Notes under the pieces: generated by a model
The model's database searches: none
What the model was told of the DNA's origin: nothing
The model's input: only the letters and a program-made list of their open reading frames with translations
In this document: positions 1 through 17,366 of the stretch, one piece after another
How positions within the stretch are numbered: position 1 is the stretch's first letter
Layout: the number at the start of each line of letters is the position of its first letter
Program-made: the position numbers and the translations under genes
Origin: a plasmid
Reading direction: 5' to 3' (one strand)
Length of the DNA stretch: 64,000 nucleotides
Sequence record: NZ_CP124633.1

Positions 1-1713
1 TGGTCTGGGTGTAGGCCGTCACCTGCACACCGGCGCCGCCCGCTTTGTTGACCATGGGGATGAACTCGTCGCCAATCAGCTCGTTGAACTCGTCGGCATG
101 CAGGTTGATGCGGACCTTGCCGCCGGCGAGCGAGCCGGGCAGGCCGTCATCGACTCCATGCTTGTAGATGTGACCCGCCACCGAGACCAGGTCGCTGAAC
201 ATGGAGTTGCCCACCGCGGCGGCGACCTCGGTATCCGATAGTGCGTCGAGGCCGACATAGACCACGGCGCGTTTGCGGATGACCTGCATCCAGTCGAAGA
301 TCGGCCGCGGATCGTTGAGGTCCGCGTAGTTGGGCGAAAGCAGCTCCGAGATCCGCCCAGTGGTGAGTTTCTCCAGCAGCGGCAGCAGCGAGGCCACGAT
401 CTTGTCGAAGTAGGTCTTGTCGTAGCGCACGGCGCTCTTCAGGCCTTCCATGACCGGGTCGGCGATGCGTTTCTGTGTCAGGTACTGGTCGATGGCCACG
501 ACCCGCAGGGGCCGTCCTTTCATGTTGAACGGGATGTTCTTGTCGTTGAGCTTGCCCTCGATCTGGATGATGGTGTCCCAGGCCCTGGGATCGTGCTCGC
601 TGATGTATTTCTGGGCATATTCGACGAACAACGCATCGATGTTCACGACGTGGCGGAGGATCTGTTGGTAGTCAGGCCGGATACCCAGCGCGTGCAGCGC
701 GCGGGCGATGATGTTGACGAACCGCCAGGCGAACTCGCGGAACGCCGCGCTGTTGCCTTCGCCGGAGAGCTGGCCGGCGACGCGGGTGGCGACCTCGGAG
801 ATCCGACCGAACCGGCCGACGGCGTTGTAGCGTGCCGACAGGTCAGGATGACCGAGGTGGAACACGTAGAACTCGTCCAGGCGGCTGGCACGTTCGCATT
901 CCACGTACATACGCTTGAGCAGGTCAGCGTCGCCTTTCGGGTCGAAGACGATCACCACCTCGTAGTCCGGCTGCTCCTCTGCGCGCCGGCGCCGGTGGCC
1001 GTGGTGAACCGTCTGGGTCCGCCGGCCCATCTTCGCCCGCCGGCGTCGGCCCCGGCAGTGGGTGCGGCGAATATCCTGGGTGATGAACAGCTCCGCGAGT
1101 CGCGTCTTACCCACCCGCGTAGTGCCGAGTACCAGTGTGTGGCCGACGCGCTCGCCCAGTTGTAGGCCTACGTCCTGTTCGCGCGGCTCGATGCCATGGA
1201 GCCTAGGCAAACCGCCCACGGGCGGCAGCGGCCGTGCGGGGTTCCAGGCCACGTCCCAGGCAGTGGCTTTGGTGACCAGCTTCAGGGGGAAAGGGGCGAA
1301 CTCAAGCTGCTTCTCCAGCCGGCGCGCGCGCTCGTAGAGCGGCGAGGGCTCGACGTAGGAGGCGAACTGGGGCAGGTAGGTATCTGCCAGGCGCTGCGTA
1401 TGCTTCTGCGTCCAGCGAAATCCTTTACCGATGAACAGGTGTTCGTTGCTGACCGGCATCTCGGCGCTGGTCATCGTGTACTTCGGCAGTCGGCGAATGT
1501 TCCGCCGGTAGCGGAGCACCACGCCGGCCTGCTTCAGCCGCACGATACCCAGCCAGGCGAAGCCCAGCGCGGCCACGATGCCGAACAGCGGAGTGAGGGC
1601 GAACGTCCACGGCGCGACGATGCAGAGCGCGGCCGCGGTGAAGCACACGGTGGTGGTGTAGAGCTCCACGGCAGGCCGCAAGAGCGCTTCCAGCGGGTAC
1701 TGGCCAGCCATGG
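1..1713 (-). CDS. traD: Type IV coupling protein TraD-like (ICE PFGI-1/pKLC102 class), N-terminal ~570 aa; C-terminus runs off window start
   Basis: Own minus-strand translation from ATG at 1713: MAGQYPLEALL..., two N-terminal TM helices, Walker A GTTRVGKT, YEVVIVFDPKGD motif; absent from ORF track because its stop lies outside the window. Confidence 0.8.
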
Positions 1714-1714
1714 G

Positions 1715-1984
1715 TTACACCTTCAAGCTTGCCGGCGACTGCAGGCGGCCCGGTCGGCGGCGCTTGGCATGAAGTTCGAGCACCTGTTTCCTGGCTTGCT
1801 CGACCTCATGATCAGGCAGCATCTGCTCCAGCAGCTCGCAGAGGGACGACTCGTCCTCCAAGGCCTTGGACGTCACCTCACCGCCGTAGCGTGAGATCAG
1901 GCCGAGCAACTCCTGGTACATGAGTTGGCGTGCCTGAGCGTCGCTCGACTGCTTGATGAGCAGGGTGATCAGGTGAGTAGTCAT
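1715..1984 (-). CDS. small ICE transfer-operon protein (89 aa)
   Basis: Internal Met MTTHLITLLIKQ... of ORF 1715..2464 preceded by AGGAGT SD 6 nt upstream, directly after stop of upstream gene; upstream part of the long ORF is R-rich junk. Confidence 0.5.
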   Translation of the reverse strand: MTTHLITLLIKQSSDAQARQLMYQELLGLISRYGGEVTSKALEDESSLCELLEQMLPDHEVEQARKQVLELHAKRRRPGRLQSPASLKV

Positions 1985-1992
1985 GAGGACTC

Positions 1993-2493
1993 CTACTGCT
2001 GGATGGCGGTGGATGTGATGAGGGCGGGGTAGTGCCGCAGTCCGAGCCGGTCGACCAGGTCGTCCGCCGGCGCCGGCAATATCTGAAGTCCTTTCCCCCA
2101 GGCACGGATTTCCGTCAGGCGCGCTTCGCTGGCCACGTTCACTGCCAGGCCCACAGCGTGGAGGCCTCGGAGCTCGTCGCCTCGCTCTTTCAGCCAGGTT
2201 CGAGACAGCGTGTCGTCGCCGACGAGGAACAGAGGTTGCAGGCCTGGGGCGTTGATGGCGCGCCCCTGAACCTGGCCTGGCGAAAGGCGTGCCGAGCGAA
2301 CTGGAAACGCACCTGAGCCACGGACACCCAGGTCGCCAGGTCCTGGTATGGCAGCGGATGGCTGCGGATCCAGGCCCTGGTAGTAGGGGAGCGCTGAGGC
2401 GCCGCCCAGGTCTTCGACAACGATCAGCCCGGCGGCCCAGGCTTGAGTCGCGAACGCCGTGCAAAATGCCAGCGTGGCAAGGAACTTCTTCAT
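1993..2493 (-). CDS. exported ICE protein with cleavable signal peptide (TIGR03757-like)
   Basis: ORF 166 aa, MKKFLATLAFCTAFATQAWA signal peptide, operon context. Confidence 0.6.
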   Translation of the reverse strand: MKKFLATLAFCTAFATQAWAAGLIVVEDLGGASALPYYQGLDPQPSAAIPGPGDLGVRGSGAFPVRSARLSPGQVQGRAINAPGLQPLFLVGDDTLSRTWLKERGDELRGLHAVGLAVNVASEARLTEIRAWGKGLQILPAPADDLVDRLGLRHYPALITSTAIQQ

Positions 2494-3071
2494 GGATTGG
2501 TCACCAGCAGGTTGACGCCGAGGACTTGGCTGAGGTGGCGGGATACTGTCCTACGGTATTTGGCGGCAGGCGCGCCGCCGGCGGGGCGGTGGTAGCGGCC
2601 GGCGACCTGGATCCAGTCCACCGGTTTCCCGGGGGCAGAGGCGTACAAGGCGTCCCGCTGCTCGATCAGGATGTCGGAGGTGGCGTCCAGGTTCTTGTAC
2701 GGATCCAGGGACTCGCAGGGGCTGGAGAAACGATGTCCGTTCCAGCCGATGTTGACCTGGCCGAGGCCGGAATCGACGCTCTTGGCCCCGTAGAGGTTGA
2801 TCGCCGCGAGTAGCGCTGTGCAGGCGGCGGTGCGGGTCGCGTAGTAGTAAGATTTCCCGGCGACGTTCAATGTCCAGGGCCAGGGAACGTATTCGCCGCG
2901 CAGCAGGACCTTGCTCTCGGTCAGCGCGACCGAGTAGAGCACCTCGGCCGGAACCCCTTTGGGCAGGGCGATCTGCTTGTACGCCGGCGGAGGATCCACG
3001 GCGGCCTGAACGATGTTGGCCAGAACCAGCAGGGCGGCCAGTTGGAGGGCGCGGATTACAGACGTTGCCAT
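2490..3071 (-). CDS. lytic transglycosylase (SLT domain) of the transfer apparatus
   Basis: 193-aa ORF with signal-like N-terminus and SLT-type catalytic region (YSVALTESK...). Confidence 0.7.
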   Translation of the reverse strand: MATSVIRALQLAALLVLANIVQAAVDPPPAYKQIALPKGVPAEVLYSVALTESKVLLRGEYVPWPWTLNVAGKSYYYATRTAACTALLAAINLYGAKSVDSGLGQVNIGWNGHRFSSPCESLDPYKNLDATSDILIEQRDALYASAPGKPVDWIQVAGRYHRPAGGAPAAKYRRTVSRHLSQVLGVNLLVTNP

Positions 3072-3811
3072 CGGCCGTTCACCTCCTGGACCAGGGCGGG
3101 AAGGGCCCCGCCCAGTCCCAGGGCCATCCAGCGGCCCTCGTCATGATTGAGCGTGATCTGCTTGCTGCGAACCTTCTTCGGGTCGACGCCGGCGAGGATT
3201 GCCCAGTGCCGCACTCGCTCTGCGTCGTTCTGGCTACCGACGAAGTAGAGATCGAACTCCTTGTTCTGCTGCTGCAGGTCGCGGACCCGCTGGATGCAGG
3301 CGGTGCAGTTGTCCTGGACGAACAGGGCCAGGCGCCCGCTGCTCTGCAACGCTGGGCTCATGTTCGGGGCGCCCGACGGGTTGGCCGTGCTGCTTTCGGT
3401 GAGGCGGATGACCCCCTCGCCTGGATAGGCGCGGGCGAAGGCTTCGTCGTATGCGCGCTGGTAGGCGAGTTCCTTCTCGACCCGGCGCCGTTCGGCCTGG
3501 ACCTGTAGATCGGCATACCGCCGCCGTTCCTCTGCCGATCGCGCCTCGATGCCCAGCGCGGTCAGCGGGTCAATGCCAGGTGAGTACACGCCCCGGGGGC
3601 CTTGCATGAGCGTCTGGTAGCGGGTCCATTCCTGTTGATTCAGTCCCCACTCCTGGGCCAGGTCGCTCTGAGATGTCTGTTGTTTCAGCGTGCCGAGTTG
3701 GCTACCGGACAGCTGGCTGCTGGTCTCTCGGCTTGCCGCAGCCTCCTGGCCGACTGCGGGATAGCTCAGCAGCAGCACCAGGCCGGACAGGAGCGATACG
3801 GTTCTGTTCAT
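3056..3811 (-). CDS. exported thioredoxin-like CxxC protein (ICE-conserved)
   Basis: ORF 3056..3886; likely start at internal Met MNRTVSLLSGLVLLLSYPAVG (signal peptide) with AGGA SD; DNCTAC motif. Confidence 0.55.
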   Translation of the reverse strand: MNRTVSLLSGLVLLLSYPAVGQEAAASRETSSQLSGSQLGTLKQQTSQSDLAQEWGLNQQEWTRYQTLMQGPRGVYSPGIDPLTALGIEARSAEERRRYADLQVQAERRRVEKELAYQRAYDEAFARAYPGEGVIRLTESSTANPSGAPNMSPALQSSGRLALFVQDNCTACIQRVRDLQQQNKEFDLYFVGSQNDAERVRHWAILAGVDPKKVRSKQITLNHDEGRWMALGLGGALPALVQEVNGRWQRL

Positions 3812-3821
3812 GTGCGGGGTC

Positions 3822-4514
3822 CTATGGTTGGATGCGAACGCTGCGCGAGGCGCCGGCGACGTCGAAGTGCGCGGTACGATCGTCAAGGTCGGTCAGTCGC
3901 CAGGTCGTGCCGGCGACGGCATCGCCCTGGCGAATGAGGTAGATCTGGCTGAGCTGGGTGGATCCCGGAGGTGCAACCGACAGAAACCGTTCGCCCCCGC
4001 GATACTCCACGCCGAGGATTGAGAAGGGCGGAGGCTCGATCGGCTTGGGTTTCGGCTTGGGCTTGTCAGGGAAGGCACCGCGCTTCGGTGGAGGCACGAT
4101 CAGCGGCGGAGCCTTGGCTTGCTTCTCTTGCAGCGTGCGGACAGAACCGTCCAGCGTCTCCACTGTTGCCTTGAGCACCAGGAGATCGCCGGCCGAGGCG
4201 GTGGTTTGAGCCAGGTTCTCGACGGCGTCGGAGGCCTGCTTGGCGAAGGCCTGCGCGGCGTCAATGCGGTTGGACAGTGCCTGCTGGCCTGAGCGGAAGT
4301 CCTCGTTGCTGACCAGGTGCTGTCCATCCACGGCGTCGAGGCGCTCGTCGACTCGATTCAAGCGAGCCAGGATCGCCTCTAGCGAGGTCTTTTCCGCGGC
4401 ACTGTCCACGCCTGATCGGAGCTGAATGAGTTGGTACTGCTGGTAGCTCAGCAGGCCGGCCATTGCCGTCAAGCAGAGGCCAAGAATCATTGATGCAGGG
4501 GATGGGCGTTTCAT
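3822..4514 (-). CDS. membrane-anchored coiled-coil protein with KPKPKPKP linker (ICE transfer operon)
   Basis: 230-aa ORF, N-terminal TM segment, first gene downstream of a 450-bp AT-richer promoter region. Confidence 0.55.
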   Translation of the reverse strand: MKRPSPASMILGLCLTAMAGLLSYQQYQLIQLRSGVDSAAEKTSLEAILARLNRVDERLDAVDGQHLVSNEDFRSGQQALSNRIDAAQAFAKQASDAVENLAQTTASAGDLLVLKATVETLDGSVRTLQEKQAKAPPLIVPPPKRGAFPDKPKPKPKPIEPPPFSILGVEYRGGERFLSVAPPGSTQLSQIYLIRQGDAVAGTTWRLTDLDDRTAHFDVAGASRSVRIQP

Positions 4515-4965
4515 GAGTGTCCTCGCGCGAAGCCAGAGACACCCTCTCAGACTGCCCCCATTGAGGCAGTAGGAAATACTCGGTGAGTGGGGGTGGGATT
4601 TTTTTGGATAGGATTCTGGCGAATCGCCGGGCCTGATTCGCTATGCGAAGATCAGTCGACTCTGGGTGCCCTTCACACGCATCTAGGCTGCGTCATTTCT
4701 GGTTAACACTGCTTCGAGGAAGCCCTAGGCTATGAATACAGACCTTCCCCAGCTCGAACAAACCATCATTGAGATAGCGTGCCAGGAATTGGTTGAAGCT
4801 GGTCAGCCAAGCCAAAACTCCCTGTCATGCTATGTCGCATCTTTCGAGTCTACTCATCTGGCTTGACTCGTTCGATGGCTAAAGCCGCTTGTGCAGTGGA
4901 GCCTGGCTGAGGCGGGACACTAGCTCAAGATGAGCGTGGCCGTTGCTGGGGTGAGTTACCGACAA

Positions 4966-6300
4966 TCACTCGTCTTCGAACTCCGCCTTTCCCTTCTGGA
5001 CCATTGAGATGGGAGGTATAAAAAACATTGTCCGCTGCGCCGCCGGCATCAGGATATCTGAGGACTTGATGCTGCTGCCCTTTCGCCGCTTGGTGCCACT
5101 GTCCTTGTCGTAAACCTCGATGTCTTTGCACAGAATTGGCATGTGGAGGGCCTCGCGAACGATGCTTTCGTTGGCCATCGTGCTGTTGGCCATGCTCTTC
5201 ATCATGTCCTCGAACGTCTGTACAGGCTGTTGGTAGATCTGCCTGGGCAGCAGCTCGGAAAGCTCTCTCTCGATGCGTTTTCCGGTGACGTTATCGAAGA
5301 AATGCTCTTCACCGAAGCCAAGGTTTTGCTGATCGGTAACCTGTATATCGCGCTTAGTGTCGTACCCCACGAATAGCGCGGGCGTCATTGCGTGCGAAAA
5401 GTGGTTGCCGTACTTCCAGTGGATTTCCTTCATCACAGCGTTGGCGCGATAGCTCTTGGCGAGATGAATGAACCAGTAGGTGCGAGGGTTAGCACCAAAC
5501 GGCGTTATGAAGAATACCGTCATGAACTCTGCGCCGCTTTCTTTCAGTATGCCCTCTGCCAGGAAGCGTTGAATGAGGTGCTGCCATTCATGACGCATCG
5601 TGGCCTTGAAGGAAGGGAGTTTAGCCCACGGAATGTATTTCTCAAGGTCAATATTCTGGAGCGCCTTACGGTTTTCCTCCCGCTCAGAAAGGTAGTCAAT
5701 CAGGCTGTCAACGTTGAACGTCAGCAACACCTCAGCGTTTCTCACTTCCTGAAAGATGGCGCGGATGCTGGAGAATGGAACATCTTTGTAAGCGTACTGA
5801 TCCAACAAGAAAATTGCGCGTTGAGAGAATTTTAATTTCTTGATCTGATTTATTAGCGCAGGGAGAGCGTTGGTGAAGCGTGACTTTATCGGGAATACGT
5901 CCTTGTCTATTAAGTGCGAATATCCTTTCGCGTTAAGTACTGCGTTCAGATAATCTATGTTGTCCTTTTTGATGTCTACAAAATAGTACTTGGCAATTAC
6001 TTCGCGGTCTTGTTTTCTCAGGGTGTTAATTTCCGCAACTGTCTGGCGAACGGTCTCCAACGCGATGATCGGCGATCCATAGTGGATGCCTATACCATCA
6101 TCGTCTTTGTAAATACCCCCTCCACAGAACCCATCGATGATGCTGATTCCTATTCGAGGGATCATCTGGTTGCTCATCACGACCGTTATGTAGGAGCGAA
6201 TATAGTCCTGAATTATCTTGTGTTTGATCTTGCTGTGGGGATTAATCTGAGGATATGTCCCGGTGGAAATATTCCACTTGTACTTTTCATCCTTGGCCAT
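4966..6300 (-). CDS. TcmP-like (three-Cys-motif partner protein family) protein, 444 aa
   Basis: Low-GC ORF; N-terminal KIKHKIIQDYIRSY...IDGFCGGG pattern shared with paralog 7293..8483; adjacent to DUF5131 gene. Confidence 0.55.
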   Translation of the reverse strand: MAKDEKYKWNISTGTYPQINPHSKIKHKIIQDYIRSYITVVMSNQMIPRIGISIIDGFCGGGIYKDDDGIGIHYGSPIIALETVRQTVAEINTLRKQDREVIAKYYFVDIKKDNIDYLNAVLNAKGYSHLIDKDVFPIKSRFTNALPALINQIKKLKFSQRAIFLLDQYAYKDVPFSSIRAIFQEVRNAEVLLTFNVDSLIDYLSEREENRKALQNIDLEKYIPWAKLPSFKATMRHEWQHLIQRFLAEGILKESGAEFMTVFFITPFGANPRTYWFIHLAKSYRANAVMKEIHWKYGNHFSHAMTPALFVGYDTKRDIQVTDQQNLGFGEEHFFDNVTGKRIERELSELLPRQIYQQPVQTFEDMMKSMANSTMANESIVREALHMPILCKDIEVYDKDSGTKRRKGSSIKSSDILMPAAQRTMFFIPPISMVQKGKAEFEDE

Positions 6301-6317
6301 CCGGTAAGTCCTTTAAC

Positions 6318-7060
6318 TCAGGCTAAATTCAAAAGAGGTATTTCATCCCAGGTCTGGCCGTTTAGCAGCCGCCCGTTTGCTTTTTTAGAGCGCTTGACTC
6401 CATCCGCCCCCCATCCGCCCCACTGCTTGAAAAAGAACGCGGAACCGGAGATATCGCACTGACGATGAATGTTGTCGACCCATTCTTGCTGCATGGGACG
6501 CGCTTTCGCGCCTGACTCGCCTCCAACGATCACCCAGTGGATATCGGTCAAGTCTATTTCACCGAGATCTTCCAGAAGGGCTCCGCCGAGAGGAAGCGGA
6601 TTGTGGCATTCACACGGCGCAAGCAGTCGATACGAGGAACGCCATAGGCCTTGTCTTCGACCGATACTCCAAGCCAGGCGTTGGTAGGTGGAACGCGCTT
6701 GCTGAAGTAGTCAGCCAATCGTTCCGCGCGCTTTGTCAGGATTTGAAAGGTATGTTGCGTCGCCTCACGAATGACGTCAAAAATCTGATCGATGTAATGG
6801 TCAGGGACTTTCTCGTGAAACAGATCCGACATGGAGTTTACAAAATAGATAGTCGACTTCTTGCGCTGAAGCGGTTCGCGAAGTTTCTCTGGACGCAGGC
6901 TAAGCTTGAAACCATTTTCATAACCTGGAGTGCCCATGGCCTGCAGTCGGTGCGCCATGTTCTCGGCATAACAATGTTTGCAGCCCGGCGATACCTTGGT
7001 GCACCCCACAATGGGGTTCCAGGTCATTTCTGTCCATTCTATGCTCGTCTGGGTACTCAT
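6318..7060 (-). CDS. DUF5131 (phage Gp37/Gp68, three-Cys motif IEWTEMTWNPIVGCTKVSPGCKHCYA) protein, reading frame broken by a 1-nt deletion in a C/G run near 6578-6580
   Basis: ORFs 6554..7093 and 6318..6551 are N- and C-halves of one protein: ...FLSAEP then +2 frame LLEDLGEIDLTDIHWVIVGGESG...FFFKQWGG; likely start at MSTQTSIEWT (7060) with AGGAG SD. Confidence 0.65.
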
Positions 7061-7292
7061 TGCACTGTAACTCCTGTCGTGCGCGATGCTCATGTAAATC
7101 GGGCGCGAATCAAATGACTATCACCTTAGTGATTGGCCTTTCTGTTCGAGGTCCTGTCAAATTGTAAGTGTAACACATCTATCCAGATAATCTCAGCTAA
7201 ATAAGAATTGCTTAATATGGTATTTGGCTTACAGTCTTATGGGGTGTTAAAACTTTCTTGTCGTCGGCTGGTTTGTGGGCTGTTGGTAGAAA

Positions 7293-8483
7293 CTAAAAAA
7301 TCTCTTTTGGCGAAAATGATTCTGCGCAGAGCACCCAGCGCTCACTTTTCCTCGGCCAATGAGGCCTTACTGGATTCTTTGTCCGCTTTCGAACATCCGC
7401 ATCCAGATTTATGATTTTCCCTTCTTTAGCTAGATCTTTGAATGCGAGTTGCAGATCCGTCGGATAGAGGTCGGTTTCCTCAAGGAAGCTTGCCCAGCAA
7501 TCATTGTCCACGAGCAATGGTGTGGCGGATAGGCGTGTCAGCAAATACTTTTTGGCGAGCATCCTGTTGTCCCGAACATTGACTGGCTCGGGCTGATCCT
7601 CAGGTGAGGAGAAGAGGTCATTAACAGGAAGCCTCTTGCTCGATTGCCGCCTGAGCTTGGTCTCGAACTGACTGACACGCTGAACCATATCCATCTGCTC
7701 GGCGGCCTCTTTGAAGACAATTAGCCCTTTAGAATGTCGCGTGAGATAGATCAGGAAGTACAGGACGCGGTCCATGCCCGGCCGCTCAACGGTAACGTAC
7801 GCAGTCTTGCCGTTGTAGATATCTCCTACCGCCTGGCGGTATTGGGAAACAATAATTTGTCGCCGCTCGGTTGCCGACTCTTTGCCTGAAAACGTGATTG
7901 CCTTACCGAGCAACTCTTCAACGTTCGCTTGCTGGGCCGTCATCGACATTGCTCGGTTGAGGAAGTCGTACATCAGGTTGATGAGAAACTCGGCTCTGTT
8001 CAACGCCAATAGCGGCGCCAGTACCGGTGCGTTGATAACCTTTCGCCAGCCCTTGGGATCAATGAAGAAGAAGGTGAAGCCAAGTTTGGCCCAGCTTGCG
8101 ATATCTTCGATTTTCGTCGTGTAGTCGCCGTGCATGCAGCTGGCGTCTACGACACTGCCCGTATCGTTGGAAAGGAATCTCTGCAGCTTCGCAAAAGCAT
8201 TGTCGTTTTTTTCGATATACAGGGCGCGGAATCTCACCTTTGCGCCATGCTGCTCTTCAAGCGTCTTCGCGCAATCCTTCATCAGGCTCAACGAGATACC
8301 AATGGAGGTGTCCCGCAAGTCATCAGACTCTTCCGACCAGGGGCCGGCGAAGCAGTCGACGTAATTGATCACCTTCTCACTGCGGCCGATGATCATGATC
8401 AGCCGCTGCAAGTAAGTTCTCAGAATGGTGTGCTTGACGTATGCCTGTTCTCTGCCCTGATATTCTATCGGCATCAAAGACAT
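7293..8483 (-). CDS. TcmP-like paralog, 396 aa, with C-terminal wHTH-like tail
   Basis: YVKHTILRTYL...VDCFAGPW pattern homologous to 4966..6300 along most of its length; start MSLMPIEY with perfect AAGGAGGTGA SD. Confidence 0.55.
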   Translation of the reverse strand: MSLMPIEYQGREQAYVKHTILRTYLQRLIMIIGRSEKVINYVDCFAGPWSEESDDLRDTSIGISLSLMKDCAKTLEEQHGAKVRFRALYIEKNDNAFAKLQRFLSNDTGSVVDASCMHGDYTTKIEDIASWAKLGFTFFFIDPKGWRKVINAPVLAPLLALNRAEFLINLMYDFLNRAMSMTAQQANVEELLGKAITFSGKESATERRQIIVSQYRQAVGDIYNGKTAYVTVERPGMDRVLYFLIYLTRHSKGLIVFKEAAEQMDMVQRVSQFETKLRRQSSKRLPVNDLFSSPEDQPEPVNVRDNRMLAKKYLLTRLSATPLLVDNDCWASFLEETDLYPTDLQLAFKDLAKEGKIINLDADVRKRTKNPVRPHWPRKSERWVLCAESFSPKEIF

Positions 8484-8689
8484 TTCACCTCCTTGTTGAC
8501 CCATCTCGGTCTCCTGCCACGGATCGGCTAATCACGTTGAGCGACGTCGTAGTGGCTATACGGTATCGTAGCCCTCGTGGCGTGGCTATGGGGGCGGGGT
8601 ATGCTTAAGTGCTGGTCGCTGAAACCAGTAGAGCGTCGCGGTGTGAATCGCCGCAGGTTTCGTGGAGGCCGTTTCGTTTAAGTCAGGCC

Positions 8690-9145
<456 letters not shown>

Positions 9146-9202
9146 CTATTTCGAAAAACTCGCATTTATTTCGAAAGCCTACAACTTCGATAAGCATTAT
9201 AT

Positions 9203-9226
9203 AAAAAAGGCCACTCAAAGGTGGCC
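9203..9226 (-). terminator. intrinsic terminator after the methyltransferase-helicase operon
   Basis: minus-strand ggccacctttgagtggcc hairpin followed by TTTTTT, 8 nt after helicase stop. Confidence 0.6.
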
Positions 9227-9233
9227 TATCTGT

Positions 9234-11519
9234 TCATGCTGCAATGAGTTGTCGTGCCAACGCCATCTCCACCGAATCTCCGTCTTGGTTCAATGAGTCG
9301 AGACCTGACTCGGGAACGTCTCCCGACGTGCTCTGAGCCACAGCGATCTTCTTGGCCATCAGTTGCAAGCAGGTGATCTGCGAGCTGCCGGCGTAGCCGA
9401 AGAACACCACCCGCACCGGGTGCCTCTGCCCGATCCGCCACGACCGCCGCGCGGCCTGCTGCAGGGTGTACACGTTGTATCCCGTCTGCAGGAACGCGAT
9501 GGTCGGGAAGTCGAGCAAGTCCAGGCCGGTCTTCACCAGTTCCGGGTTGGTGATCAGCACATCGATGCCGCGTTCAACCTGGTCGAGGATCCAGTCCTCG
9601 CGCCGAGAGGTAACGACCGAAGCACGTAGCACTGCCACCTTCAGCCCAGCCTGCTCGAGCACTTTCTTCAGCCTGGACGTGGTGTCGCGCGTTCCGCTGT
9701 AGACCGTGTAGGCCAGGACCTTGCGGCCCTTCGCTTTCTCCTCGAGGCAGAGGTCCAACAGCGCCTGTTCCTTTGGCATCAGTTGCTCGTCGCCGAAGAT
9801 CGCTGGCACGAAGGCCAGTGTGTCCCGGGTTCGCGGATGCTTGACGATCTCCGGTCGGAAACAGCAGTCCGGCCAAGCCAGCAGCACGTTGAGGACCACG
9901 CCCAGGAGCGTGGTATCTCGTCGCGCCAGAGCCTGGCGGAGCTCCGCTGTCAGCGTGGCCGCCAGGCGCTGATAGGCCGAAGCCTGATCCGGCGCCATGG
10001 GCACGTCGACGAGCTCTTCCTGGTAGTCGGGCAGTACGTTGCCGCCGATGTCCCTGAGCTTCAGGAACACGGTGAACGGCAATACGAAGCGGTGGATGCC
10101 CTTCGGGCCGAAGCCGGGAGCCTTCACCGTGCGTACCGAGAGCTTCTTGCCCCGGGCTGTCTTGTGCGAGTCACCATCGCGTTCGGTGTAGATGTCCTTG
10201 AGCACGCCGTGGTCGCGCATGAACGACATGGCTGCTGGAGCCATGCTGCCACGCGCGTTGGGCCGGTAGCCGTCCTCGATCATGCGCTGGGTGAGGATGC
10301 GGAACAGGAGGTAGAACAGGTCGTCGGCGTAGCCGCCCATGAGCGTTCCGGTCAGCAGCACGGTTTTCCGTGCCTTGGCTGCGAGAACGCCCATGGCCTG
10401 GCCCTGGGCCGAACTGCTGTTCTTGTACTCATGCCCCTCATCCACCACCAGCAGGTCGAAGTAGCCATCAGGTAGGTAGCGCTTGATGAACTCGGTCGGT
10501 TGGTAGCCTCCTTCGCCGAAGCCGAACTCGATGTTCGCCATCGATCGCTCCATGCGTTTGGCCTGCCGATCGCTGAAGACGAAGTTGCCCTTGGCGTCCA
10601 TCAGGTTGATGAACTCCGAGACGTTGTCCACCAACATCGTGGCCAGGAAGTCCTCGCCGAAGTCGTTCAGCAGGCGCTCCGCCCTGACCGGGCCGATGGT
10701 TGGAATCCGACACATCGACTTGAGGATCGTTGCGCGCCGGCTGCCGCCGTCAGGCTTGCCTGGCCGGATCAGCGTCCAGAGCGCCCCACGGCAGGAGGAA
10801 CAGGTACGTCGACGGTCACCACGCTCGAACTCCTCCACCGTGACCAGGTTGCCTTCCAGGTCCTCAAGGACCTGGCCGCAATCCGGGCACGCAGCGAGCA
10901 ATTGACCGCCAGCGGCGCGTTTCCTCCAGCAGGCGAGTCGCCAGTGGAAACCCATCCGCATCCGCACGCGGCCGAGGATGAAGAACTCCTGGCGCCCGTC
11001 GTAGGCGTCGCCCATCTGATCTCGCAGCTTGAGCAGCTTGAGTAGAGTATCTGGGCCGTTGAGTACCCAGACGCGGGCGCCTGGGATGGTCTCCAGTATC
11101 TCGCGGCGCCACTTGTAGACCAGGTGCGGCGGAGAGACGACCAGGGTCCGGCGATAGCCGGCCGCGTGCATGACCGCTGCGACAGCGATGGCCATCATGG
11201 TTTTCCCGGTGCCCATCTCGGCGTTGATGATCCCGGCCTGCTCGTTACGGTCCAGCAGCAGGGCGGTGATGGCCTGGACGACCTCGGCCTGGGCCGCGAA
11301 GGGCTTGCGCTTGAGTCGGTCCATCACCAACTGGCGGTGAGCGTTGTCGGATCCGGTATAGACCGGGGGGTTGGAGCGATTGAGCGACTCCAGGAGCTCG
11401 TCGCCGAACTCGTCGATGAAGTCGGTCAGGTTGATGTTCAGGGGGAGGCGGCCAGGGCGGCCGGTTGGGTCAGAGCGTTCATGTGCATCTCCTGCAGGTG
11501 AAGGAAGAAAGCAGGGCAT
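9234..11519 (-). CDS. SNF2-family helicase with Zn-ribbon (CPDCG...CSSCRG) and HhH (IPTIGPVRAERLLNDFG) insertion; true start probably ATG at 11482 (MNALTQPAALAAS...) joined through a C5/C6 homopolymer frameshift near 11449-11453
   Basis: Walker A AEMGTGKT, motif II VVDEGHEYKN, helicase C motifs; strong CAGGAGAT SD serves the +1 frame short ORF that fuses in frame if one C is added. Confidence 0.8.
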   Translation of the reverse strand: MPCFLPSPAGDAHERSDPTGRPGRLPLNINLTDFIDEFGDELLESLNRSNPPVYTGSDNAHRQLVMDRLKRKPFAAQAEVVQAITALLLDRNEQAGIINAEMGTGKTMMAIAVAAVMHAAGYRRTLVVSPPHLVYKWRREILETIPGARVWVLNGPDTLLKLLKLRDQMGDAYDGRQEFFILGRVRMRMGFHWRLACWRKRAAGGQLLAACPDCGQVLEDLEGNLVTVEEFERGDRRRTCSSCRGALWTLIRPGKPDGGSRRATILKSMCRIPTIGPVRAERLLNDFGEDFLATMLVDNVSEFINLMDAKGNFVFSDRQAKRMERSMANIEFGFGEGGYQPTEFIKRYLPDGYFDLLVVDEGHEYKNSSSAQGQAMGVLAAKARKTVLLTGTLMGGYADDLFYLLFRILTQRMIEDGYRPNARGSMAPAAMSFMRDHGVLKDIYTERDGDSHKTARGKKLSVRTVKAPGFGPKGIHRFVLPFTVFLKLRDIGGNVLPDYQEELVDVPMAPDQASAYQRLAATLTAELRQALARRDTTLLGVVLNVLLAWPDCCFRPEIVKHPRTRDTLAFVPAIFGDEQLMPKEQALLDLCLEEKAKGRKVLAYTVYSGTRDTTSRLKKVLEQAGLKVAVLRASVVTSRREDWILDQVERGIDVLITNPELVKTGLDLLDFPTIAFLQTGYNVYTLQQAARRSWRIGQRHPVRVVFFGYAGSSQITCLQLMAKKIAVAQSTSGDVPESGLDSLNQDGDSVEMALARQLIAA

Positions 11520-11586
11520 GCACGTCCCTTTCGGGTATCGGCATACCCTGCAGGGTGGAGTGGAAGGAATCGCCGTGGGGGCGAGG

Positions 11587-13032
11587 TCAGTAGTCGCTGG
11601 GGAGCAACAGGGTGGTCGAACTGCGATCAGCCTCAGTGATGATCCAGAGCCTGGATTCGCCGCCGGCGTCGATGTCGTAGGACGACAGCAGCCGATCGCC
11701 GAACTTCAGGGCTCTCTGGTTGGTGTTCCAGTCTTCCTGGTCCAGCGTCCCCCAATCTCCCGCCAGATGGCGGTTCAGCAAGGGCGCTGGGTTGAGTTGA
11801 CCGATTTCCACCAGGTGGCTAACGGCAGCGGTCATTACGACCTGGCCAGGGTTGAACAGCAGCGGTTCCGGGGTAGGCTCAGGTTGGGGCTCTTCAGCTT
11901 CTTCCGTGGTTGCGGCCGAGGAGCTGATGGTCAGCACGCGGCCCTGATTGACCGAGGAAGGTGTCATTTCCCATGCCCGGATGATCGGGATGAAACGGTC
12001 GGTGAGGATCCTCACCTCGGTGATGTTGCCGTCGTCGTCTTCGGTGAATTCGGTCTTGCGAACCTTGTCCTTGTAGGTGTCACCCTTCACGACCAGGATC
12101 CGGCCCGACTTCGATTGCACGACGCCGGATATCGCGCCGGCGGCCAAGGCCAGGGCCAGGTGCCAGCGAGACAGCTCGCGGACTGGTGGGCGCGGCTGCA
12201 GCCCCGCTTGCGCGAAGTGCAGGTTGAAGTCAGGCCAGAGACCTCGCAGCCGCTGGATTTCACCGGCGAACTGCTCCGGCTCCAGGGTTACTCGGTAGAA
12301 GTGCTCCAGCTCGCTGGTGGCCGGCAGAACCACGTAGGGTTCCCATGGCCAAGCCGCTGGAATTTCCTCGGCCTTTTCCTGGCCCGCGTCGATCGCCTGC
12401 AGGCGAGACCTCACCTGATTGGCGTCCGCCCGGGCCAGGTCCTGCCGACGGACCCGGATGCCGAAGATCACCACCTGCTTGAAGGTAGGATCCGCGGCTG
12501 CGTAGATGTGCAGGCCAGTGAAGTGGTTGCTCAGCCAGCCAGACAGCTCATCGTCCAAGACGTAGTGAGGAACAATCAGGACCATGACGCCGCCGTACTG
12601 CAGCAACGGCAGGCAGCGCTGGTAGAACGCTTTCTCCAGACGCCGGCGGCCGCTGCCCTGGTACTGCGACGCACCGGAGTGGTCCGCCACCAGGTCGCCA
12701 TAAGGCGGGTTGAGCCAGAGCAGTCCGAACGACTGCCTGCTGATCATGGTGTCGAAAAGGTCACTGTGCAGCACTCGGTCAAGCAAGCCACGAGCGTGGT
12801 CGGCGCGCTCGCGGTCGTACTCGACAGCGAGGGCTTGGACCTGATCGCGGCCGAGGGTGTGCGCTGCCTCAGCCAGGGCAACCCCCTCACCGGCGCAGGG
12901 ATCACAGATCCTCATTCTGCCCGACGGGGCAGGAGCGAGGGCCTGCAGAGCGCGTTCGAGGGTGACCTCATCGGTAGGGAAGTAGCCGTTGCGTGCAAAG
13001 TTGCGCGCCAAGCGCGGGAACATGAGGGCCAT
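11587..13032 (-). CDS. gamma-class N6-adenine DNA methyltransferase with ~200-aa C-terminal domain of unknown function (...WIITEADRSSTTLLLPSDY)
   Basis: motif I DPCAGEGVA before motif IV LNPPYGD; 481 aa; operon partner of the SNF2 helicase. Confidence 0.8.
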   Translation of the reverse strand: MALMFPRLARNFARNGYFPTDEVTLERALQALAPAPSGRMRICDPCAGEGVALAEAAHTLGRDQVQALAVEYDRERADHARGLLDRVLHSDLFDTMISRQSFGLLWLNPPYGDLVADHSGASQYQGSGRRRLEKAFYQRCLPLLQYGGVMVLIVPHYVLDDELSGWLSNHFTGLHIYAAADPTFKQVVIFGIRVRRQDLARADANQVRSRLQAIDAGQEKAEEIPAAWPWEPYVVLPATSELEHFYRVTLEPEQFAGEIQRLRGLWPDFNLHFAQAGLQPRPPVRELSRWHLALALAAGAISGVVQSKSGRILVVKGDTYKDKVRKTEFTEDDDGNITEVRILTDRFIPIIRAWEMTPSSVNQGRVLTISSSAATTEEAEEPQPEPTPEPLLFNPGQVVMTAAVSHLVEIGQLNPAPLLNRHLAGDWGTLDQEDWNTNQRALKFGDRLLSSYDIDAGGESRLWIITEADRSSTTLLLPSDY

Positions 13033-13062
13033 GGGGCCTCCTTGAGTCTGAGAGGGATGGCT

Positions 13063-13666
13063 CAGGCTTGCGCCTGAGCATCGGTGGTAAGAATGCTTTC
13101 GCGGATCAGCTCACCGAGGGTGGGCTCGAGCACGTCGACCCGCAGGGCGAGTCGCCAGGCGCAGACGTTGCCGATCGTCCCGGGTAGGGCCGTCAACATC
13201 TGGTGCTGGGTGAGGACCTCCATCACCGGCTCGCGCCAGTGCTGCAGGAGGGGAGCGGACAGGTTTCCATCACCAGCGGCCAGAGCCTCTGGTGTGGATC
13301 CTCATCGCGCTGCAGGAGTGCGAAGGCGAGGTGATTGCCTCGGTCGGGCGCCGAGGCGCGCCGATCGAACAGCCAAAGATTGAGCAGGCTGCCGAACAAC
13401 GTGCCGCGGAACTGGCGGGTGGTGCGTTTCTCCAGGAGATCCTGGTTTGGGAAGACAGGTAAGCGGCGGCCGTCCACGATGATGTGGAAATGGTCGATGC
13501 CATTTTCTTCCCGGCCCAGCGTCAGCCTGGCCAGGAACTCTTGTGTCACGGTGTCGCGGCCCCAGGCCGAAAGAAAGACCAGGTTGCGCTGCTCGTCGCA
13601 CACGCAGGCGTCGACGTACAGGTCTGGGCACTCTTCGATCTGGTAGAGCGGGGTGGGACTGGGCAT
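13063..13666 (-). CDS. hypothetical protein; ORF 13223..13666 (147 aa) plus overlapping 53-aa frame (MEVLTQHQMLTALPGTIGNV...) probably one ~200-aa protein split by a C-run deletion near 13250-13253
   Basis: CAGGAGG SD before 13666 ATG; +2 frame after ctcccctcc reads ...LPLLQHWREPVMEVLTQ... continuously. Confidence 0.45.
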
Positions 13667-13757
13667 AGGAACCTCCTGGAAGGAGGAGCCACGCCGCCCT
13701 CAAGGGGCGGTGAAGCCCCTCGGGGTGTAGTCCAACTGGTGCAGGGGAGCGTGGTGG

Positions 13758-14012
13758 CTACCGAACGCTCTTGGTGTGAGGGTCGAACCTGAGCCCATCG
13801 GCTTGGTGCAGCGGCCCTTGGCCGATCAGGAAGACCTGGCAGAGGTACTGATCGCGTAGCGCGACAGCCGCTTCCGCCTGCTCCAAGGTCAGCGACAGCT
13901 CCTCGATGAACAGGTCGATGAGCTCGTCGTCGCCGGCGACGTCGTTGTTGGACAGTTGATCCTCGAGGTAGGCGAGGGTTTCCTGGGTGAGGTTGGTGAA
14001 CAGTGGGTTCAT
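13758..14012 (-). CDS. small highly acidic protein (84 aa), possible DNA-mimic/anti-restriction-type protein
   Basis: AGGAGC SD; EDQLSNNDVAGDDELIDLFIEELSLTLEQAEAA; flanked by CCCTCAAGGG hairpins. Confidence 0.45.
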   Translation of the reverse strand: MNPLFTNLTQETLAYLEDQLSNNDVAGDDELIDLFIEELSLTLEQAEAAVALRDQYLCQVFLIGQGPLHQADGLRFDPHTKSVR

Positions 14013-14079
14013 GGTGTGCTCCTGGTGGTAGACGAGGAGCGCCCTTGAGGGAGCCCCTCAAGGGAAGTGGTTGGTGCGG

Positions 14080-14442
14080 TCAGGCTTGGTGTTCTTGCGT
14101 CAGACGGTCTCGCCACTCCTGGTTGGTCTCATCGTGAGCCAGATCCAGGAACTCCAGCGGACAGCCGTAGTAGAACGGGCCTGCTTTCTCCGGAATGGTC
14201 TTGTAGCCCCATTGCCCGGCCGAGCAGTCCAGCAAGTGCAGCTCGATCATGGTGATCGAGTGACCGGCCGGCTTGCCGAAATAGAATCCGGCAAGGTGGA
14301 AGGTTCGTTTTACGACAGTCCAAAGTTCATTGCCGGAGACTGCGTGTGCCAGCACCTCGGTGCTGCCTGCGAAGGTACTGGTTGGGGCCAGCAGCTCACG
14401 CAGCAGGTCTTCCTTCGTCTGATGTGAGAAAAGCCATCCCAT
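14080..14442 (-). CDS. hypothetical protein (120 aa)
   Basis: ORF with CAGGAGCAC SD. Confidence 0.5.
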   Translation of the reverse strand: MGWLFSHQTKEDLLRELLAPTSTFAGSTEVLAHAVSGNELWTVVKRTFHLAGFYFGKPAGHSITMIELHLLDCSAGQWGYKTIPEKAGPFYYGCPLEFLDLAHDETNQEWRDRLTQEHQA

Positions 14443-14544
14443 AGGTGTGCTCCTGTGGTTGGCCAGGTCTCCCTGACGGGAGAACCCGGCAGGGGTGGGT
14501 AGGGTGTTGCTTCAGCGTGTTGCGCGCTCAAGGCGCTGGAGGAG

Positions 14545-15336
14545 TCAGCTGGTTGACAGAGCAACGCCAATAGCAGCAGCGCTTACAGCCATTGCGCTGA
14601 TAGCCTGGTGGGTGGAACAGGTTGTAGTAGCACTCCGGGCTGCCGTGCGGCGCTCGTAGTCATCGTCTAGCGACTGATTGACCCCGGCTTTGGCTCCAAC
14701 ATGGAGAGGGCACGCTTTGCGGGTCCACACTTGTTTTTTGAAGTCGAGCTCATAGCCCAGCGCGCCGAGTCGCACACATTGTTGGCGTAGTCGCTTGCGG
14801 TCGACCGTGGTGTCCAGCTTGACGATTTCGCCTAGCGGCCAGACCGTCCCGAACAGTTCTGCATCTGCGTCTGTGTCCAGAGTGGCGGCCTGCTCTGCAG
14901 GAGCCGGAGGGTCCATACCGAAAGGCGCGTCGTCCCCGGTTGCAGCGGGGCGCAGAGGCTTCGGTTTCTGGGGCGACTTCGGCGGTGCCGCCGGTGCGGC
15001 AGTGGGTTGCTGGATCGCGGGCACTTCGTCGAGCGGATCCACCTCATTGCCAGAGAGACGCTCTGCCTCCTCGTCGCTGAGGTTGTCCACGTCGTCCAGA
15101 GTCATGCTGTCGAGCTTCGCGCGGATCTCGACGACCAGCCGGCCGCCGGTGGTGTAGTAGGAGGGACGGATCTCGGTGATGGCGAAATCACCGCGGTACT
15201 TGCCTTCGATGTGCTGGTCCAGGAGAGCGTCCTTGATGACGAACTCCCCGATCGAGGTCGAGAGCTTTCCCACGTTGAACTCGCCATTGCGACCGTTGAT
15301 GGTTCGAATGGCCAACTGGCCGGGTATGTTGATCAT
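14545..15336 (-). CDS. DUF3275-like ICE protein with Pro/Ala-rich acidic linker
   Basis: ORF 14545..15459; start taken at MINIPGQLAIRTINGRNGEF because upstream extension is R/S-rich junk. Confidence 0.5.
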   Translation of the reverse strand: MINIPGQLAIRTINGRNGEFNVGKLSTSIGEFVIKDALLDQHIEGKYRGDFAITEIRPSYYTTGGRLVVEIRAKLDSMTLDDVDNLSDEEAERLSGNEVDPLDEVPAIQQPTAAPAAPPKSPQKPKPLRPAATGDDAPFGMDPPAPAEQAATLDTDADAELFGTVWPLGEIVKLDTTVDRKRLRQQCVRLGALGYELDFKKQVWTRKACPLHVGAKAGVNQSLDDDYERRTAARSATTTCSTHQAISAMAVSAAAIGVALSTS

Positions 15337-15391
15337 GGCGTGACCTGCGAAAAGGATGATCCCGCCGAAGCGGGATCGTGGTGAGGGAGAA

Positions 15392-15742
15392 CTACTCGGT
15401 ATCCGGGTTGCCCTGGAGGCTTTCTTCCTGCAGCTCGATGCGCAGGTAGGAAGGCTCATCGGACGGCTCGACTATCGAGAGGACCAGCAGCGCGAGCGCG
15501 CGGTCCTGCCCCTCTTCCTCCTTGTGGTACAGGTGGAATTGGATGTGCTTCGCGGTCGGCTGGAGCGAAAGCTCCTGCCAGGCGGTTTGAACGACACTGG
15601 CCAGCCGGGTGCCCATCTCGTCGACCCTGGCAGGGTTGGCGAGATAGACCAGGCGCAGCCAGGCCGCGTTGGTGAGAACGATCGGGAGTTTGAGGTACGC
15701 AGCAGTGTGACCTGCGCTGGAGTGGTTGTTGAGAGAGGTCAT
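15392..15742 (-). CDS. hypothetical ICE protein (116 aa)
   Basis: ORF with GGAGAC SD. Confidence 0.5.
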   Translation of the reverse strand: MTSLNNHSSAGHTAAYLKLPIVLTNAAWLRLVYLANPARVDEMGTRLASVVQTAWQELSLQPTAKHIQFHLYHKEEEGQDRALALLVLSIVEPSDEPSYLRIELQEESLQGNPDTE

Positions 15743-15977
15743 GAGAGGTCTCCGAATACGCAGGCCTCTCCCGCGGGGATGAGGTCCCCGCGTGGGTGGG
15801 TAGGATGCACTCCATCACTTGCGTGATGCGACCGCGCTGCCGAGTGCTGTGGCGGTCTTGGGTGGGTTAGCGCTTGCGCGCCGGAGCCTTAAACCCTGGC
15901 TCCTTGGGAGGCGCTGTCAACGACAGCGAGCCAATTCGAATTCGGGGGCTGGCGGGATTTCCCGCCGGCCGGATTGC

Positions 15978-16685
15978 TCAATCGTCATAAAGCGGCAGGC
16001 CCTTGAGCGTGGGCGCGAATGGATCAAGTACCAGGAGCCGGATGTCTGCTTGTCCCGCGAGGTGAAGCAGATCGACCAGGTGTTCGTCGAGGCCGAAGTC
16101 AAGCTGTTCTTGTCGAAGAGCGGCTGCGGTCATCTCCAGGATCTCCAGACACTCATCCGTCCAAGGGGTGTTGTGCAAGCGAAAGCCCACGGCACCGTGC
16201 TCGTTACACCAGAAGAGCGATACCAACACCGAGGGCAAGCGGATTGGCATCTTGGTCGAGAACCTTTCGTAGAGGCTATTCCACGCCCTGATGGGTAGAT
16301 GTGTTTTTCTGATCTCCCAGCAGCGGTTATAACCGCCGCCGAACGAAAGGTATCGAACGACACTCTCGGCTTCGGTCAGTGAGTATTGATCTCCGATAAG
16401 CTTTTTTCTGCCGTCCTGCTCACCGTAGATGCTGTAAAGTACGTTTCTCACTATTCCTTGGTGAGGGCATTTTTCAACTCTTTCATCGTCTAAGTCTTGG
16501 GTTACCACGGCGAAATCGCCATTGAAGTAGCACTGCTCGCACTGAAAATATTCGTCTGGGAGGTGCTGCTGGGTTTCATGCAGTGCGCGGTAGCACGGTA
16601 GATTGTCGCCTTCGTCAGTGATCTGCAGGTTTCGCTCGATGCGGAAACTCTCATAGCCGCGAATAAACGGATTGAGTTGAGTCAT
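15978..16685 (-). CDS. Cys-rich hypothetical protein (CYRALHE...CEQCYFNG...KCPHQG), lower-GC cargo
   Basis: 235-aa ORF, GGAGAT SD, local drop in GC. Confidence 0.55.
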   Translation of the reverse strand: MTQLNPFIRGYESFRIERNLQITDEGDNLPCYRALHETQQHLPDEYFQCEQCYFNGDFAVVTQDLDDERVEKCPHQGIVRNVLYSIYGEQDGRKKLIGDQYSLTEAESVVRYLSFGGGYNRCWEIRKTHLPIRAWNSLYERFSTKMPIRLPSVLVSLFWCNEHGAVGFRLHNTPWTDECLEILEMTAAALRQEQLDFGLDEHLVDLLHLAGQADIRLLVLDPFAPTLKGLPLYDD

Positions 16686-16785
16686 GGGGTATCTCCGGTT
16701 GCCGGGAAGCCCATGCCCTTGGAGGCTATGGACCTCCAGGTGAGTAGGGGCGCCGAAGCGCCCAGGTGATGTCGAGTTGTTGTAG

Positions 16786-17064
16786 TTAACGCGATAGGTG
16801 TTCTTCTTTACGCCGAGCCTTCTGGTATCGCTCTACCAGGCCATAGTATTGAAGTACCGGTGATGTGCTCGAGTCGCAACCATGCTCACAGTCGGCCTGC
16901 GCCAAAGCTTCGATTGCATCTTGAATTACATAGAGCTCGATACTGAGTCCTGCATCGCCAAACTCATCAACCAAGCCTTTGCACAGAATGTACTCGAACT
17001 TGCTTTGTGCGGCTTGTACTCCGATGTTGAGTAGAGCTGGGAGCCTTTCTGGGTATGTGTTCAT
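16786..17064 (-). CDS. hypothetical protein (92 aa)
   Basis: ORF, start at MNTYPERL. Confidence 0.4.
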   Translation of the reverse strand: MNTYPERLPALLNIGVQAAQSKFEYILCKGLVDEFGDAGLSIELYVIQDAIEALAQADCEHGCDSSTSPVLQYYGLVERYQKARRKEEHLSR

Positions 17065-17168
17065 GGTGAGTTCCAATTCGTAATCAAATCGGAGAGGTCA
17101 CCTCCCAACAGGGGTGATGACCCCGTCTGGGTTGAATTAGAAGATGAACATGGGCAAAAGGGTAAAGC

Positions 17169-17366
17169 TTAATATTCCCGTTGCGTCCAAGTACCGTTGT
17201 CTAATGCCTGTTGAGCAAGATCGCGGGAGGGGTAATATTCAACCGACTCGCGCGAGGCTGGTCCTTCTTCATCAAGGGTGCCGATATAGAAGCCGGCGTT
17301 GGACATAAGAACCTGCAGCGGCAGTTCGAGACGAAGATGGGCGAGTGCCCGCTTTCCGTATTGCAT
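17169..17366 (-). CDS. hypothetical small protein (65 aa)
   Basis: start MQYGKRAL with AAGGAGA SD. Confidence 0.45.
   Translation of the reverse strand: MQYGKRALAHLRLELPLQVLMSNAGFYIGTLDEEGPASRESVEYYPSRDLAQQALDNGTWTQREY

Follow-up and report, generated by a model that had tools for sequence, protein, structure and literature searches.

Introduction

TcmP proteins (profile TIGR04474) and the three-Cys proteins of the DUF5131, or Gp37/Gp68, family (PF07505) are encoded by neighbouring genes on phages and other mobile elements, and PADLOC carries the pair as two candidate models, PDC-M30 and PDC-M41. RadicalSAM.org lists DUF5131 as Megacluster-5-2, adjoining spore photoproduct lyase at 5-3 (PMC9477430). 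The family is large—searches return more than 8000 DUF5131 hits, and the profile of a single TcmP subfamily, called T1 below, accounts for 2299 representative clusters at 50% identity—and it is in this experimentally uncharacterized family, and not in any one copy, that the interest lies. Here we analyze one such copy, a cassette in which a DUF5131 gene stands between two TcmP genes, in a stretch of 64,000 nucleotides from the plasmid record NZ_CP124633.1 ('the window', to which all coordinates refer).

We read the segment 4793..9198 as a widespread mobile trio of the PDC-M30 kind, together with an IS3 remnant, carried as cargo by an integrative conjugative element (ICE). The trio would be a module that modifies nucleic acids in an S-adenosylmethionine (SAM)-dependent way and takes part in mobile-element conflicts, and the frameshift that splits its central gene would be an artefact. 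Taken whole, this reading has in our estimate a probability of about 0.5. Two features had made the copy look special, a broken DUF5131 gene and a duplicated TcmP gene, and neither stands: the break is probably an artefact, and the 'duplicate' belongs to an old and conserved layout with two partners.

The three genes and their distribution

The genes lie on the minus strand, all three at the coordinates first assigned to them. TcmP2 comes first (7293..8483; 396 amino acids (aa), or 403 aa if the alternative start at 8504 is used), and is followed by a spacer of 232 bp and 42% GC (7061..7292), then by DUF5131 (6318..7060), and finally by TcmP1 (4966..6300; 444 aa), the first base of which lies 17 bp past the DUF5131 stop codon. 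TcmP1 is of the T1 type and TcmP2 of the T2 type, two subfamilies to which we return. DUF5131 has the three-Cys motif C-TKVSPG-C-KH-C and occupies two frames in the window, 6554..7060 (or ..7093) and 6318..6551. We presume the spacer to have a regulatory or promoter role for DUF5131 and TcmP1; a consensus scan of the cassette region for promoters and terminators gave nothing above shuffled controls.

The family assignments made from the letters alone hold up when the profiles are run. TIGR04474 scores 233.4 bits on TcmP1 and 99.9 bits on TcmP2, against a curated cutoff of 53 bits, and PF07505, with a gathering threshold of 28.9 bits, finds both pieces of the split DUF5131, at 229.5 bits (profile positions 1–163) and 107.1 bits (173–243). 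TIGR04474 also expects a PF07505 three-Cys gene close by, and the DUF5131 gene lies 17 bp before TcmP1 and 232 bp after TcmP2. The A and B models of both PDC-M30 and PDC-M41 match the cassette: PDC-M30A scores 93.8 bits on TcmP1 and 45.7 bits on TcmP2, PDC-M30B 246 and 98 bits on the DUF5131 fragments, and PDC-M41B likewise 246 bits. The genes matched by the A and B models of PDC-M30 are adjacent, as that system has them. These matches support the view of the initial annotation, offered as a reading, that the cassette is a candidate modification or defence module. Among the PHROGs, DUF5131 finds an unannotated family only, and the TcmPs find no match.

Far from being new or rare, the cassette is widespread and already catalogued cargo of Pseudomonas conjugative elements, present in NCBI annotation and in PADLOC as PDC-M30. 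Many P. aeruginosa genomes encode, at the same ICE site, proteins identical to TcmP1 and TcmP2; the intact DUF5131, TcmP2 and the commonest allele of TcmP1 are each matched exactly on about 1000 public Pseudomonas contigs, the number at which the counter stops. NCBI names the identical proteins TcmP and 'phage Gp37/Gp68 family protein'. DUF5131 is intact, at 247 aa, in all 10 loci that were fetched (L002–L011), and two of these, L002 and L003, are identical to the cargo block over its 4406 bp save for one base (CCC in the window, CCCC in theirs). A megablast search with the cassette matched no PLSDB plasmid and no INPHARED phage. Outside any ICE, the P. brassicacearum chromosome holds the same arrangement—T2, a spacer of about 240 bp, DUF5131, 17 bp, T1—at 65–76% protein identity.

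Some copies have acquired further insertions. In other P. aeruginosa copies of the same ICE (L006:5047-7180; L007, L010 and L011:4226-5944) the insertion beside TcmP2 is either an ISL3 transposase together with a Lar restriction-alleviation gene, or a group II intron reverse transcriptase, which replaces or interrupts the SNF2 helicase gene.

Pairing and partner exchange

Two surveys describe the family at large, one covering 80 genome loci (species-level, with DUF5131 as the anchor), the other 80 viral contigs. TcmP is immediately adjacent to DUF5131 in 68 of the 80 genome loci, upstream in 38 and downstream in 30, and one adjacent TcmP is present in 38 of the 80 viral loci; the conserved pairing on phages and mobile elements that had been proposed for this cassette is real. 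Where TcmP lies upstream its stop codon is within 11 bp of the DUF5131 start, or overlaps it, in 29 of 39 loci. The two members of the pair have nonetheless evolved very differently. Across 56 loci the median identity is 56.6% for DUF5131 versus 14.8% for the adjacent TcmPs, with a Spearman correlation of 0.04; judged by their sequences, the TcmP partners are hypervariable and freely exchanged relative to DUF5131.

Among 135 flanking open reading frames (ORFs) no third gene recurs consistently. Best represented are helix-turn-helix regulators (4), N6_Mtase (3), type I S subunits (3) and S24 peptidases (3), followed by TIR, UvrD, Eco57I and MmeI-type proteins (2 each). In S. meliloti a TcmP gene adjoins hna. 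ICEs, Tn3 and Tn7-like elements and prophages all carry the module. A 323-aa tyrosine recombinase is encoded 30 bp upstream of a DUF5131–T1 pair in L173:4235-7317, L174 and L012:6000-9078, and in P. aeruginosa this combination has a Tn3/mer transposon context. Oddly, a 90% protein cluster with members named 'cointegrate resolution protein S' also includes the exact DUF5131 protein.

In an uncultured Halomonas (L175:1-9979) DUF5131–T1 apparently travels as cargo of a Tn7-like element: Tn7-like genes (Mu-type transposase, TniB and TniQ) come just before it, along with an ORF of 526 aa that has no annotation, and a DinG-like helicase gene faces it. Elsewhere a gene for a LexA/UmuD-like S24 repressor stands directly upstream of DUF5131 (L014:6339-7004, L018:6363-7004 and L025:6290-6982), overlapping the DUF5131 start in the first two, the gene order in all three being Tx–S24–DUF5131–T1. 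This arrangement hints that in some Betaproteobacteria the module is under SOS-type control.

DUF5131 as a radical-SAM-like protein

Thirty relatives of DUF5131 share two invariant motifs, C20-x6-C27-x2-C30 and G180-G181-E182-S183-G184. The cysteine spacing, CX6CX2C, is a variant of the canonical CX3CX2C of radical-SAM enzymes. The profile of a described radical-SAM family, TIGR04471 (rSAM_mob_pairA), scores 51.4 bits on DUF5131 (E = 9.5e-14), and a sequence search against the PDB detects no relative. The literature places DUF5131 in the radical-SAM superfamily; as a member it would be predicted to bind a [4Fe-4S] cluster and to cleave SAM reductively.

The TcmP fold

Both TcmPs are modelled as a Rossmann-like class I SAM-methyltransferase fold of the RlmJ/Trm1 kind (approximately residues 20–296 in TcmP1), with a winged helix at the C-terminus. 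The best structural matches are RlmJ (PDB 6qe5) and Trm1 (PDB 3axt). A fold search of BFVD yielded nothing beyond generic methyltransferases, at low TM-scores, and sequence searches of the PDB with TcmP1 and three family profiles returned nothing meaningful. The winged helix comprises the last 80–100 residues (PF22560); in T1 the match is sub-threshold, but the domain is on record in relatives from both clades.

An alignment of E. coli RlmJ with 68 TcmPs brings motif I (LDTHAGAG) and motif IV (IDPPY) of the former onto two conserved TcmP blocks, the consensus of which is yiD.FaG.G and flD-pyg. In T1 the invariant motifs are DGFxGGG and LLDQYAY; in T2 they are DCFAGPW and IDPKGW, both variants, and both are found in TcmP2. 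Because the two loops are so strongly constrained within each clade, the alignment argues for their being working sites. We do not claim membership of the RlmJ-like class I methyltransferases for TcmP; what the models indicate is the same fold, and likely a similar way of working.

What the module might do

We picture the module as a self-contained, SAM-dependent complex that would modify nucleic acids. Its conserved radical-SAM-type core, DUF5131, would perform the chemistry, and the fast-evolving, exchangeable, RlmJ-like TcmP would bring the DNA or RNA target to it, or methylate that target. The trio would then be one enzyme with two alternative partners, T1 tightly coupled to it and T2 set behind its own AT-rich spacer of 232 bp. 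Since prophages, ICEs and transposons carry the module, and restriction–modification (R–M) genes of types I and IIG, TIR and UvrD genes neighbour it, it may well act in conflicts of mobile elements with hosts, phages or restriction systems, either as defence or as self-protection.

Several things weigh against this. Around half of the DUF5131 genes in the viral survey have no TcmP. In 14 genome loci (L015, L021–L023, L028, L030, L031, L034, L036, L038, L040, L041, L051 and L070) the partner is convergent, and such TcmPs—which are also those of most TcmP-bearing viral loci—are short (approximately 275–300 aa) and lie tail to tail with DUF5131, the 3' ends often overlapping. Because of these convergent pairs TcmP and DUF5131 do not always form one operon, and because of them and of the TcmP-less viral genes an obligate complex is unproven. 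The catalytic motif IV of methyltransferases, (D/N)PP(Y/F/W), reads DQYAY in T1 and DPKGW in T2, the Asp being kept in all; with neither paralogue matching the canonical DPPY, methyl transfer may have been lost from TcmP. The kinship with RlmJ shows at the level of fold only: an hmmsearch of the PDB with TcmP profiles does not find RlmJ, and hhalign of the T1 and T2 profiles with a single RlmJ sequence gives probabilities of 6.8% and 1.7%. The judgment that the frameshift is an artefact, set out below, derives from the sequences of other strains and not from reads. Finally, we found no experimental study of the function of DUF5131, TcmP, PDC-M30 or PDC-M41 in the searchable literature.

A different division of labour, which we regard as unlikely, would make the module an effector-type anti-phage defence that does not modify its own DNA. 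DUF5131 would be a radical-SAM effector that, once triggered, damages or alters its target, either a nucleotide or nucleic acid of the phage or host; the TcmPs would be sensors or specificity factors, and possession of two would widen the range of phages sensed. The PADLOC matches and the defence-type neighbours fit this. A hypervariable partner with a conserved core is typical of arms races between sensors and effectors, and in 32 P. aeruginosa strains with PDC-M30 68.8% were phage-resistant, although that is correlation only (PMC10855318). Against it stand the clade-invariant, methyltransferase-like loops of motifs I and IV, which suggest catalysis and not mere sensing, and the many viral contigs in which DUF5131 is alone; here, too, no experimental test was found.

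Improbable, as we see it, is a role in the repair or tolerance of DNA damage, in which an enzyme like spore photoproduct lyase would mend a lesion with the help of a DNA-binding TcmP, under SOS control. DUF5131 shares its megacluster with that lyase, the S24 repressor genes at the DUF5131 start in three loci (L014, L018 and L025) are of the LexA/UmuD kind, and the ICE site that holds the trio holds umuD and an SOS-response peptidase in pUM505. Yet S24 proteins make up only 3 of the 135 neighbours, the module occurs only on mobile elements and in variable regions, and partners that diversify and swap to such an extreme are unexpected of a repair factor.

Equally long odds attach to modification of ribosomal or transfer RNA. 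By analogy, TcmP would target RNA as RlmJ and Trm1 do, and DUF5131 would add a radical-SAM step in the manner of RlmN or Cfr, with an effect on translation. The best structural matches are indeed ribosomal and transfer RNA methyltransferases, but similarity of fold does not fix the substrate, and the C-terminal winged helix and a neighbourhood of mobile-element and R–M genes fit DNA better.

To return to the nucleic-acid modifying module that we favour, it could be taken a step further, into territory that we consider speculative and would not bet on. TcmP/DUF5131 would then be a 'programmable' radical-SAM system of a new kind, in which a highly conserved enzyme of the spore photoproduct lyase clade modifies nucleic acids under the direction of interchangeable, fast-evolving RlmJ-like adaptor or methyltransferase subunits. 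The Pseudomonas trio would be its dual-adaptor form, with two targets, and would leave on DNA or RNA a mark (or lesion) whose chemistry has no described precedent and which settles what becomes of incoming phages, or of the element itself. Whatever the outcome, the family now offers some leads: an RlmJ/Trm1-like partner with a winged helix, a core far more conserved than its partner, partner swapping, a dual-partner layout that recurs in one clade, and loci placed under LexA-like repressors.

The frameshift in DUF5131

The DUF5131 gene was noted at the outset to be broken by a single-base frameshift at 6578..6580, and in the window it is: the run reads CCC there and CCCC in ten other copies, and with one C lost at codon 160 no single intact frame of approximately 245–250 aa remains. 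Were the break real, the invariant GGESG motif (residues 180–184) would be lost and the enzyme therefore inactive. Comparison with two near-identical references puts the matter in a different light. Against L003 (window 1–14297) there are no substitutions and three single-base deletions; against pUM505 there are none and three over 17399–41170, and one substitution, five single-base deletions and a 19-bp insertion over 43545–64000. All 11 single-base events—a minimum—fall in runs of G or C, and each time it is the window that is shorter, with one substitution in approximately 58 kb. Besides the DUF5131 site they are at 11445, 13253, 19583, 19901, 30415, 51563, 54311, 57004, 58646 and 62081.

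Six of the losses, at the DUF5131 site and the five sites from 11445 to 30415, were mapped to genes. Five break an annotated gene (four of them among those last five sites): DUF5131 is interrupted at codon 160 and the SNF2 helicase at codon 13, and the others are a gene of 201 aa, one annotated as hypothetical, and a TcpQ pilus gene. Eleven homopolymer losses in one direction against one substitution are the signature of systematic under-calling of homopolymers, a pattern that selection on, or decay of, a single cargo gene would not give. To judge from these alignments, the frameshift is most likely a sequencing artefact and the real gene probably intact; the rest of the description, a single-base shift at that site, is correct. 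The alternative, that the frameshift is real and the module of this ICE copy decaying and non-functional, its radical-SAM core pseudogenized, is distinctly unlikely. The given sequence does read CCC, slippage in homopolymers is a common natural mutation, and exact look-ups of both truncated products turned up the break in no other assembly, so no identical one contradicts it. The same shortening at ten other G/C runs, however, extends to backbone genes (the SNF2 helicase, TcpQ and 201-aa genes), and the ten other copies of DUF5131 are intact. Given such systematic losses, frameshifted genes anywhere in the window are suspect.

Two TcmP subfamilies around one DUF5131

The initial annotation took TcmP1 and TcmP2 for a duplicated and diverged pair, homologous from end to end. 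BLASTP aligns them at 21% identity over 66 aa (E = 0.003). Profiles built from 40 T1 and 59 T2 relatives align over 344 columns (38–430 versus 19–379) at 16% identity, with a probability of 96% and E = 2.7e-9. The end-to-end homology therefore holds at the level of profiles; the duplication does not. By sequence, the two are ancient subfamilies and not the products of a recent local duplication. T1-type genes lie downstream of DUF5131 in 15 of 15 genome loci, adjacent to it in 14, and T2-type genes upstream in three of four; in other taxa each serves as sole partner.

Nor is the layout peculiar to this element. None of the 80 genome loci and none of the 80 viral loci has TcmP immediately on both sides of DUF5131, and to that extent the arrangement is as unusual as was supposed. 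In seven of the 15 T1-type genome loci, however, a second, shorter TcmP lies 0.5–3 kb away (L014, L015, L018, L025, L027, L032 and L034). All five of these that were scanned (L014, L018, L025, L027 and L032) exceed the TIGR04474 cutoff, and L176 has the same layout. Because second TcmPs recur in this way, and because the trio has been kept in P. brassicacearum, the dual-partner layout is, on the sequences compared, a recurrent minority architecture of one clade. Duplication of the partner in place, with later divergence and an architecture specific to this element, is scarcely credible: both proteins pass TIGR04474 and align nearly end to end as profiles, but their 16% identity, the occurrence of T1 and T2 each as sole partner in other taxa, and the P. 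brassicacearum trio contradict a recent event.

The cargo block and the conjugative backbone

By its alignments the window is an ICE of the pKLC102/pUM505 type. Backbone matching pKLC102 runs from 1 to 4792 and resumes at 9199, and the 4406 bp between, 4793..9198, are the cargo block, IS3 remnant included; these borders replace the 4515–8660 first proposed. At 51.4% GC, against 64.3% and 62.9% in its flanks, the block is AT-rich relative to the backbone, as had been claimed, but not in absolute terms. Its cassette abuts 278 bp of conserved intergenic backbone (4515..4792, minus strand; 97–98% identical to pKLC102 and pUM505) that lie upstream of the gene at 3822..4514, the first in a traD-containing string of transfer genes. 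In pKLC102 the same junction is occupied by a recombinase/SDR/TetR/DsbA set, and in pUM505 by the SOS-response peptidase, umuD, integrases and a mer transposon. Because the two elements hold different cargo there, the junction is a general, variable cargo site, and the location of the trio as ICE cargo is borne out. A repeat search found no direct or inverted repeat at the ends of the block.

The IS3 remnant that had been noticed beside the cassette is confirmed, and lies inside the block (8644..9198, minus strand). It is what is left of a 5'-truncated, ISPst4-like transposase gene, present in other copies too: an rve fragment spans 8851..9111, positions 246–327 of the 369 in profile NF033516 are matched, and approximately 8644–9139 is 85–87% identical in DNA sequence to ISPst4-family IS3 elements. 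L004, L005 and L008 likewise have an rve ORF.

Other features of the backbone deserve brief mention. A tandem array at 43007–43953, in which a 57-bp unit is repeated 16.6 times (84% matches), adjoins a gene that homology to pUM505 identifies as encoding an STY4528-family replication protein; the array resembles the iteron-type origin of pKLC102-family elements. The 19-bp insertion relative to pUM505 is at approximately 59186 (TGGCTTTTAACCAATTGGT), in surroundings that are about 99.9% identical. By identity to the annotation of pUM505, the stretches at approximately 17400–41170 and 48130–49020 encode a RelE/ParE toxin–antitoxin pair, crpP, a type IVb pilus cluster with a PilV shufflon adhesin, and a DNA adenine methylase beside ParB and YejK.

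Comparison with known systems

Type I R–M systems provide a working analogy, and no more than that. They too combine a conserved catalytic core with fast-diversifying, exchangeable target-recognition subunits, and R–M genes are frequent neighbours of TcmP/DUF5131. The cassette, however, is not known to have sequence specificity and has no homology to HsdS, HsdM or HsdR; nor did profile scans find in it a nuclease domain, the cognate nuclease that an R–M system would have.

TcmP shares a methyltransferase fold, in models, with RlmJ, the E. coli 23S rRNA m6A2030 methyltransferase, and with Trm1, the tRNA m2,2G26 methyltransferase. It differs from both in its extra C-terminal winged helix, its altered motif IV (DQYAY or DPKGW) and its carriage on mobile elements beside a radical-SAM-like gene, and sequence-level searches found no significant match between them; from RlmJ it differs also in that most of the motif I–GSP segment is, in the family alignment, apparently absent.

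DUF5131, for its part, belongs with spore photoproduct lyase in Megacluster-5, and has invariant three-Cys and GGE-type motifs, but its cysteines are spaced CX6CX2C instead of CX3CX2C, and a role in lesion repair is not known for it. The 'radical SAM mobile pair' (TIGR04471 and its partner) is likewise a two-gene pair named for mobility, and its A protein is a distant relative of DUF5131; with a family cutoff of 355, far above the score obtained here, DUF5131 is not a member.

Closest of all is the TcmP/DUF5131 pair itself (TIGR04474 with PF07505; PDC-M30 and PDC-M41). The cassette shares with it the adjacency of the genes, scores above the curated thresholds, and matches to both A and B models. 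It differs in having, around one DUF5131, two partners from different TcmP subfamilies, where most loci have one.

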